Counted from the first letter of the stretch, positions 28,109 through 40,506 are shown. The stretch is DNA of 64,000 nucleotides from Dictyostelium discoideum (GCA_000004695.1 CM000151.3:8288001-8352000); one strand, 5' to 3'. Made by a program: numbers and translations. The notes: generated from the sequence alone by a model not told the origin.

Positions 28109-33865
<5,757 letters not shown>

Positions 33866-34083: not shown

Positions 34084-35474
34084 ATGATAACAGAAGCATC
34101 AGAACAAGAAAAGATTTTAGATATATTATTTGAAGAAAAAAAAGAAAAAGTTGCATTCGTATGTGGTAACACATACCAAGATAATCCAGATTATAGGAGA
34201 TTATCAAAGGTAGAAAATGATGTAATAAAAATGACTGAAGTATTAACTAAATGTGGATTTAAATGTTATCAATGTTTAAATAAAGATTCAATTCTTATTC
34301 AATTTGATAAATTTTTAAAAAGTATCGTATTTGGACTTCATATGGAGATTGTATTTTATTTTTCAGGTCATGGATTTGTAGGAAATAATAATAATAATAT
34401 TAATAATAATAATATTAATAATAATAATAGTAATAATGAAGATAAATTTATGGGTAAAAAACATCTTTTATTAGTAAACAATATAAAGAGAAATAATGAA
34501 AATGAATTACCATTGAATAAGAGATATGCATCTTTAATTGATATAGTTAAAAAATTAGAAGCAAAAGAAGCAATTATTAGAACTCGTCAAAGAAAGAAAT
34601 TAGATGAAGATTTTCAAGAGGCTTATCAACCTATTGATGAAAATGCATCAACTGAAGAAAAGGAAAAAAACCAACAAAAGAAAAAATTAAATTCAATGTT
34701 TTTAGATATAGAATTTAGAAAAGTTTTTATTTTAGATTGTTGTAGAAATGATTTAAATTTAAAAAATTATATTGAATCTGAAAAACTTGAAAATATGGAA
34801 AGACCAGGTATATATATATATATATATATTTAAAAAATAACAGTATTAGTAAAATTTAATTTATTTACTAATTATTTTTTTATAAAATAGATACAGCATT
34901 TTTATATGGATGTACACCTGGGAGTGTTAGTTATATATTATCAAATGATGAAAACTCTTTATTGACGTCATGTTTTTTACGTAGAATTCAAAGTGATGAA
35001 AAAAAAGAAAAAAGTAGAAATTTATCAAAAATTGCTAAAGTTATTCAAATTGATATTGCAAATAAATTGAGTGGTTTAAAATCATGGGGTAGGGATGTTA
35101 AAGATTGTTTTGATAATTTAAAAAAATTAACTATTACTTCTGAAACTACTACTACTACTTCTACTACTACAACCCTTACTGAAACTGATAATGAAAGCTC
35201 ATCTAATCAAGAAAAGAGAGTTTTCAATGCAACTTTTTCAATAGAAGCAGCAGCAGCAACAACAATAGAACAACTTAACTCAAAAATTATTCAAAATGAA
35301 AATGAAATTGAAATTGAAAAAGAAAAAGAAAAACAAATTGAAAAAGAAAGAATTGAATTAATTGGAGATATACCACCAGAAATATTTAGTAAAATTTTAA
35401 AAGTGAAAACAAATTTATTATATGGTGATATTACTATGGGCAATTTTATATTTTATGACCAAAAAAAAAAATAA
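34084..35474 (+). CDS. paracaspase-like protein (peptidase C14 caspase fold)
   Basis: The exons are 34084..34807 and 34890..35474, with an intron GTATAT(TA)n...AAATAG. It has the catalytic-dyad motifs YFSGHG (His) and ILDCCRN (Cys), at caspase/paracaspase spacing. The motif region VAFVCGNTYQDNPDYRRLSKVENDVIKMTEVLTKCGF precedes the His. Exon 2 begins DTAFLYGCTPGSVSYILSNDENSLLTSCFLRRI, which is small-subunit-like (GS-S----G-S-F---L). Confidence 0.5.

Positions 35475-35827: not shown

Positions 35828-40506
<4,679 letters not shown>

Follow-up and report, generated by a model that had tools for sequence, protein, structure and literature searches.

Reviews up to 2024 state that the genome of Dictyostelium discoideum encodes a single caspase-family protein, PCP, and the lack of a phenotype in the pcp-null has been used as an argument that Dictyostelium cell death is independent of caspase-family proteases (PMC11596484, PMC3417536). 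In the account of Roisin-Bouffay et al. (2004) given in PMC11596484, PCP is a paracaspase without death or Ig domains and is dispensable for developmental cell death. Here we describe the D. discoideum gene DDB_G0277689, found in a 64-kb stretch of DNA (the window, from whose first nucleotide all positions are counted), which most likely exists in addition to the named pcp, and we consider it reasonably probable that it is a paracaspase-like member of peptidase family C14 with an active product.

Two kinds of specificity pocket serve as points of reference. In MALT1 the residues D365, D462 and E500 form an acidic, Arg-binding S1 pocket that gives Arg specificity, whereas the S1 residues of caspases are Arg, Gln and Arg (Arg179, Gln283 and Arg341 in caspase-1 numbering). 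In its broad sense the term paracaspase is reportedly used for a MALT1-like clade that includes bacterial members. Metacaspases (types I-III) are marked by a Cys motif of the DSCHSG type, by a cluster of Ca-binding Asp residues, and by either a prodomain at the N-terminus or a long p20-p10 linker.

The locus is a two-exon D. discoideum gene, whose features are listed in Table 1. The reading frame begins with an ATG at 34084 and is open to the GT at 34808, and exon 2 continues in frame to a TAA at 35472-35474. Splicing yields a 435-residue product that matches DDB_G0277689 of strain AX4 at 100% identity from end to end; the AX4 gene is carried on an 8,484,197-bp contig that we take to be chromosome 2. 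Public databases already contain the gene with its C14 domain, under the protein names 'hypothetical protein' (NCBI XP_642523.1) and 'Peptidase C14 caspase domain-containing protein' (UniRef/UniProt Q54ZB4), and the family is well known. The intron lies directly ahead of DTAFLYGCTPGS, where the counterpart of the caspase small subunit starts, and 21 residues past the catalytic Cys; the first-pass annotation had thus correctly placed it between the Cys-bearing and small-subunit-like parts. The string GS-S---G-S-F that it reported at the start of exon 2 is not literally there, as the sequence reads ...PGSVSYILSNDENSLLTSCF, but this part of the protein does line up with the PGxxA...NSxFT block of its homologues. 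No signal peptide is obvious by eye, and a Pfam search for accessory domains (death, Ig or other) returned none, PF00656 being the only match; the catalytic domain begins near residue 20, leaving no space for an accessory domain on its N-terminal side. No second C14 gene was found elsewhere in the window. Scans for bacterial promoters and terminators have no bearing on this eukaryotic locus.

Table 1. Features of the DDB_G0277689 locus, in window coordinates
Feature	Coordinates	Strand	Remarks
Exon 1	34084..34807	+	ORF and splice reconstruction; codons 1-241 plus first base of codon 242; C14 strands beta1 to beta4, with His96 and Cys220
Asp46	34219..34221	+	Invariant in all aligned homologues; aligns with MALT1 D365
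His96 of YFSGHG	34369..34371	+	Predicted catalytic His; its counterpart in bacterial, rotifer and MALT1 sequences is the His of SGHG/AGHG
Insert 1	34378..34452	+	Poly-Asn low-complexity loop, residues 99-123, directly past the catalytic His
Insert 2	34567..34707	+	Residues 162-208; charged extension, predicted to be helical, separating helix alpha3 from strand beta4
Asp218-Cys219-Cys220	34735..34743	+	C220 is the predicted catalytic Cys (alignments; hhalign to MALT1 LLDMCR)
Intron	34808..34890	+	83 nt, GT..AG, phase 1 (within codon 242), 7% GC, (TA)n-rich
Exon 2	34891..35474	+	Remainder of codon 242 to stop; p10-like C14 part, low-complexity/coiled insert, conserved C-terminal module
Insert 3	35130..35360	+	Thr-rich stretch, then E/K-rich predicted long helix, residues 322-398
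C-terminal module	35361..35471	+	IGDIPPEIFSKILKVKTNLLYGDITMGNFIFYDQKKK, 37 residues; conserved only within the dictyostelid family

The gene lies between two others transcribed in the same direction. Upstream (28109-33865, + strand) is a 1918-aa ORF that is dominated by Asn/Gln homopolymer runs, has no Pfam match at E <= 0.01, and resembles ordinary protein only in its last few hundred residues; an equivalent gene lies upstream in a second D. discoideum strain, L003. Downstream (35828-40506, + strand) is a gene with a Vps51/Exo84/COG1 N-terminal domain (PF08700, E 8e-18), in which mechanical ORFs of 263 aa and 1162 aa belong to a single gene, whose L003 version is 1424 aa long. An (ATT) tract of some 43 units, read as poly-Tyr in the ORF list, lies in the first intron (about 36466-36659), and a C-rich island, ctccactcacacccccaccccacccctctcgtcccctc, is present at 36937-36974 in an extremely AT-rich stretch that is apparently also an intron of this gene.

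DDB_G0277689 itself is also present in L003 (L003:3001-4408). Relative to the window, the exons differ at 19 of 1308 nt (1.5%) and the intron at 9 of 83 nt (11%), plus indels. Eight of the exon changes are synonymous (on approximately 242 sites) and 11 are non-synonymous (on approximately 1063 sites). Four of these 11 are in the poly-Asn tract and none is C-terminal of residue 144, such that the Cys strand and the p10-like segment are free of non-synonymous change between the two strains. All of the length differences are within low-complexity inserts, namely the poly-Asn tract, an EKEKEK repeat, and an Ala/Thr-rich stretch in which a 24-nt deletion removes FSIEAAAA. Small as these numbers are, they point to purifying selection on the fold, within which the inserts behave as unconstrained, microsatellite-like sequence.

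The protein matches Pfam PF00656 (Peptidase_C14) with an E-value of 6.5e-14 and 52.6 bits, against a gathering cut-off of 21.4; its D. purpureum and D. discoideum relatives match the same model, and the only NCBIfam match, to a model of bacterial caspases, is below threshold. The match is far beyond chance and the catalytic dyad is aligned, so that the C14 fold proposed in the first-pass annotation is borne out: DDB_G0277689 belongs to peptidase family C14 of clan CD and has the caspase-hemoglobinase fold. An AlphaFold2 model built from 19 sequences has a mean pLDDT of 61, the strands and helices of the core lying at 80-90 and the inserts below 50; the sixth beta strand is not placed. When the model is ranked against known structures, caspase-3, -8 and -9, which score about 17.5 and are not the top match, come ahead of metacaspase-9 (16.8), followed by legumain, GPI transamidase, CHAT, gingipain and separase, that is, the whole of clan CD. 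A model of an insert-poor D. purpureum homologue adopts the same predicted fold and scores 16.7 with caspase-1, 16.2 with MALT1 and 15.9 with metacaspase-9; placement in a sub-family by modelled structure is therefore not robust, as it does not discriminate among these three. The C-terminal GDITMGNFIFY was considered as the missing sixth strand (compare bacterial SSLxGDFYF) but is not supported as such, the AlphaFold2 pLDDT being low and the hhalign alignment ending at alpha5. MAFFT sets SWGRDVKDCFDN, and not GDITMGNFIFY, opposite the bacterial PWxSSSLxGDFYF.

The two catalytic motifs named at the outset are confirmed: YFSGHG occupies residues 92-97 and ILDCCRN residues 216-222. H96 and C220 fall on the catalytic positions, which in C14 are where strands beta3 and beta4 end, both in multiple alignments and in hhalign comparisons with MALT1 and a bacterial profile, and it is the second Cys of DCC, not C219, that aligns with the catalytic Cys. 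Across 19 aligned sequences A24, D46, G95 and C220 are invariant, H96 is retained in all but two sequences of a His-less paralogue (P0033 and P0032), and D218 and R221 are at least 90% conserved. D365, H415, D462 and C464 of MALT1 align by hhalign with D46, H96, D218 and C220, so acidic residues (Asp46 and Asp218) occupy two of the three MALT1 S1-pocket positions; the third, E500, aligns with Ile256 and is hydrophobic in DDB_G0277689.

The spacing of the two motifs was misjudged in the first-pass annotation, which described it as that of the caspase, paracaspase and metacaspase dyad. His96 and Cys220 are 124 residues apart, whereas the distance is 42 in caspase-3, 49 in MALT1 and 52 in AtMC9 (the PDB served to check the sequences used for caspase-3 and AtMC9, and that of MALT1 was taken from a profile-search match), and 46-52 in the bacterial matches. 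Among the nearest dictyostelid relatives, the D. purpureum homologues and the paralogue in D. discoideum, it is 58-71. The spacing is thus outside the canonical C14 range of about 40-55 and is 2.5 times canonical. The excess is due to two inserts, the poly-Asn loop and the charged extension, and homology to C14 stands. Insert 1 is an (AAT)n tandem repeat that is missing or far shorter in homologues and has pLDDT below 50. Insert 2 is mostly missing in the D. purpureum and bacterial homologues, and AlphaFold2 predicts helices at residues 151-180 and 190-205 with pLDDT of approximately 61-82. A third insert lies beyond the catalytic residues; pLDDT is 27-44 at residues 321-360 and about 75 in the helix at 356-398, and tandem repeats are present at 35289-35349.

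The insert is followed by the C-terminal module, in which F, K, G, D, G and F are invariant in DDB_G0277689 and two D. purpureum proteins. The module is outside the alignment to bacterial profiles, and a tblastn search with exon 2 matches a D. purpureum locus at this module. Its pLDDT is low in DDB_G0277689 and 68-82 in the D. purpureum model.

The relatives of DDB_G0277689 are few. An exhaustive phmmer search of 1.84 billion representative proteins (E <= 0.001) gave just 15 matches, among which the only dictyostelid proteins besides the query are DICPUDRAFT_147756 (P0003, 389 aa) and DICPUDRAFT_79158 (P0004, 562 aa) of D. purpureum. All the others, from bacteria, rotifers or metagenomes, are 'caspase family' proteins of the MALT1-like type, with E-values of 1e-9 to 1e-3; one match, P0011, is a fragment that resembles MALT1 by eye. 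A profile of the three dictyostelid sequences additionally finds a paralogue, represented by P0033 (ACTFIW_012194, 562 aa) in D. discoideum and P0032 (ACTFIZ_003928, 561 aa) in D. cf. discoideum, in which Phe stands in place of the catalytic His (SGF, within FIFYYSGFSIS) while LDCCR is intact. SGHT is still present in P0004, the D. purpureum counterpart of this paralogue. Loss of the His in the paralogue indicates that loss of catalysis does happen in this family. The dictyostelid profile search gave no AX4-named protein for the P0033 paralogue, which may therefore be unannotated in the reference proteome, and at the phmmer and profile sensitivities used no family members were found in other dictyostelid groups. 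On these searches the family appears to be small and confined to D. discoideum and the closely related D. purpureum. The D. purpureum proteins and P0033 are 27-37% identical to DDB_G0277689 and have in common with it the C-terminal module and a DCCR/ECCR motif; unlike DDB_G0277689, P0004 and P0033 have a long Ser/Pro/Thr-rich tail.

DDB_G0277689 and both D. purpureum genes (three genes compared) share a phase-1 intron in the codon directly before TAFLY. The family is therefore older than the split of D. discoideum and D. purpureum, and the locus is a resident eukaryotic gene and not a contaminant or recent transfer. No flanking gene is held in common within 10 kb of either D. purpureum homologue, and one-to-one orthology is consequently unproven. 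The best non-dictyostelid match, P0002, is encoded on a JGI metagenome contig of 1787 bp and may come from a protist; it joins five Sel1 repeats to a C14 domain whose FILDMCRS motif is MALT1-like.

A plausible account of the activity of DDB_G0277689 is that Cys220 would act as the nucleophile on the scissile bond and His96 as the proton shuttle of an active cysteine endopeptidase, which would accept Arg or Lys, but not Asp, at P1. As the linker past the Cys is only about 20 residues long, inter-subunit cleavage would not be needed, as in MALT1. Control could be exercised by oligomerisation or by the lineage-specific inserts, and the His-less paralogue might, speculatively, be a heterodimeric partner or a decoy. 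The two inserts that flank the active-site strands could, however, leave catalysis impaired or gated, and we have considered that the protein has the caspase fold but is a dead, non-proteolytic scaffold or regulator, a pseudo-protease in the manner of c-FLIP relative to caspase-8. The parting of the active-site strands by two large lineage-specific inserts, and the long spacing that results, would be in keeping with this, but the inserts are in surface loops and helix extensions, and the core is still modelled with confidence. The sixth strand is missing from the model, one S1 position is hydrophobic, and the paralogue has already exchanged SGH for SGF; yet His96, Gly95, Cys220, Arg221, Asp46 and Asp218 are all kept between D. 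discoideum and P0003 at only about 30% identity, and the two strains have no non-synonymous difference in the part that carries the Cys. We therefore regard a pseudo-protease as unlikely, though still a serious competitor, and retain an active enzyme as the favored reading.

PCP is a member of the same peptidase family in the same organism, and the first-pass annotation took the locus to be 'probably the dictyostelid paracaspase', with an additional C14-fold protein as the fallback. That it is the known pcp gene now seems very unlikely. Neither NCBI nor UniRef gives the protein a paracaspase or pcp label, although pcp has been named since 2000-2004 and has been knocked out. We take pcp to be DDB_G0293196, on chromosome 6, whereas the contig that carries DDB_G0277689 has the size of chromosome 2. 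No mention of DDB_G0277689, XP_642523, Q54ZB4 or EAL68602 was found in the searchable literature, and the same is true of DDB_G0293196. Moreover, pcp served as the PSI-BLAST seed that led to the discovery of the metacaspases (PMC2064784), whereas DDB_G0277689 is very divergent and no C14 chain of known structure is matched by its sequence. The best 120 matches of a broad profile search all come from rotifers or bacteria. The fallback is thus the reading to be favored, the gene being set apart from pcp by database names and not by alignment.

Within C14, the first-pass annotation was right to sense an affinity of the paracaspase type. Plain sequence searches of the PDB with DDB_G0277689 or with the dictyostelid-only profile match no C14 chain, and the connection to MALT1 is made only by hhalign or by a widened profile. 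With hhalign, the dictyostelid-only profile aligns with MALT1 over 171 columns that span both catalytic residues (90.9%, E 1.2e-6), with AtMC9 over just 77 N-terminal columns (59%), and fails with caspase-3 (8.8%); with a profile of seven bacterial caspase-family domains it aligns over 198 columns (99.7%, E 1.3e-25). With the profile widened to include the nearest matches, the E-values are 3e-38 for MALT1 chains, 1e-13 for caspase-1 and 4e-8 for metacaspases. The Cys motif LDCCRN is similarly close to bacterial LDACRN and MALT1 LDMCRK, and is unlike caspase QACRG and metacaspase DSCHSG. As the catalytic domain is closer to the MALT1 and bacterial profiles than to caspases or metacaspases, we assign the family to the MALT1-like/bacterial branch of C14, that of the paracaspase-like proteins.

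That the protein is instead of the metacaspase or orthocaspase type is most improbable: of MALT1, AtMC9 and caspase-3 only MALT1 is aligned over both catalytic residues, the neighbor profile favors MALT1 over metacaspases by about 30 orders of magnitude, and DDB_G0277689 has a DCCRN motif and not one of the DSCHSG type, a linker of only about 20 residues past the Cys in place of a long p20-p10 linker, and no N-terminal Pro/Zn-finger prodomain. Although the GC content of the whole window is just 22% and low-complexity ORFs are many, a chance pair of motifs in AT-rich DNA, or a pseudogene, is refuted by the Pfam match, by the frame that is intact across a canonical intron, by retention of the gene in a second strain with exons far less diverged than the intron, and by the intron position common to the D. 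purpureum homologues.

The paracaspase-like gene described here bears on how the pcp knockout is interpreted. The first-pass annotation repeated that dictyostelids have a single paracaspase and no metacaspase; the literature does say so of D. discoideum (PMC11596484, PMC3417536), but the count is too low on the present evidence. With a dyad-intact DDB_G0277689 and a His-less paralogue, the C14 complement is larger than one, and redundancy with PCP is therefore not excluded by the pcp-null result. DDB_G0277689 contradicts the statement of a single caspase-family gene, and reopens the question of whether the pcp knockout alone excludes a part for caspase-family proteases in Dictyostelium cell death. 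A broader proposition, that D. discoideum and D. purpureum have a private paracaspase-like sub-family, with the dyad-intact DDB_G0277689 and a His-less D. discoideum member, in which DDB_G0277689 is active and overlaps PCP, is distinctly doubtful; if it were true, caspase-free developmental cell death, as inferred from the pcp knockout alone, would lack a real test.

The nearest non-dictyostelid relatives are bacterial and rotifer caspase-family proteins (P0006, P0013, P0015, the Sel1-C14 protein P0002 and P0009 of Adineta), which have in common with DDB_G0277689 the motifs A-[LF]-V-x-G-N, N-D-A/V, F-Y-[FY]-S-G-H-G, [IL]-L-D-x-C-R-N, P-G-x-x-[AS] and N-S-x-[FL]-T. They end in PW-x-SSL-x-GDFYF, an ending that is not clearly present in DDB_G0277689, they are without the three inserts and the C-terminal module, and many have Sel1, LRR, WD40 or other partners. 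The caspases (caspase-1, -3, -8 and -9) have a basic S1 pocket, whereas DDB_G0277689 has Asp46 and Asp218 at the first two positions and lacks QACxG. The metacaspases (AtMC9, AtMC4, Yca1 and TbMCA2) have the DSCHSG motif and match the family in the N-terminal half only. Human MALT1 (PDB 3v4o and 3uoa, among others) has death, Ig1/2 and Ig3 domains that are missing in DDB_G0277689, which thus departs from the type 1 paracaspase architecture and has in its C-terminal part low-complexity sequence, a predicted helix and the 37-residue module. Relative to MALT1 it has approximately 75 extra residues between the His and the Cys, a 77-residue insert, a family-specific C-terminal module, and Ile in place of E500, and it provides an extreme example of the insertion that is tolerated between the catalytic residues of a caspase fold.
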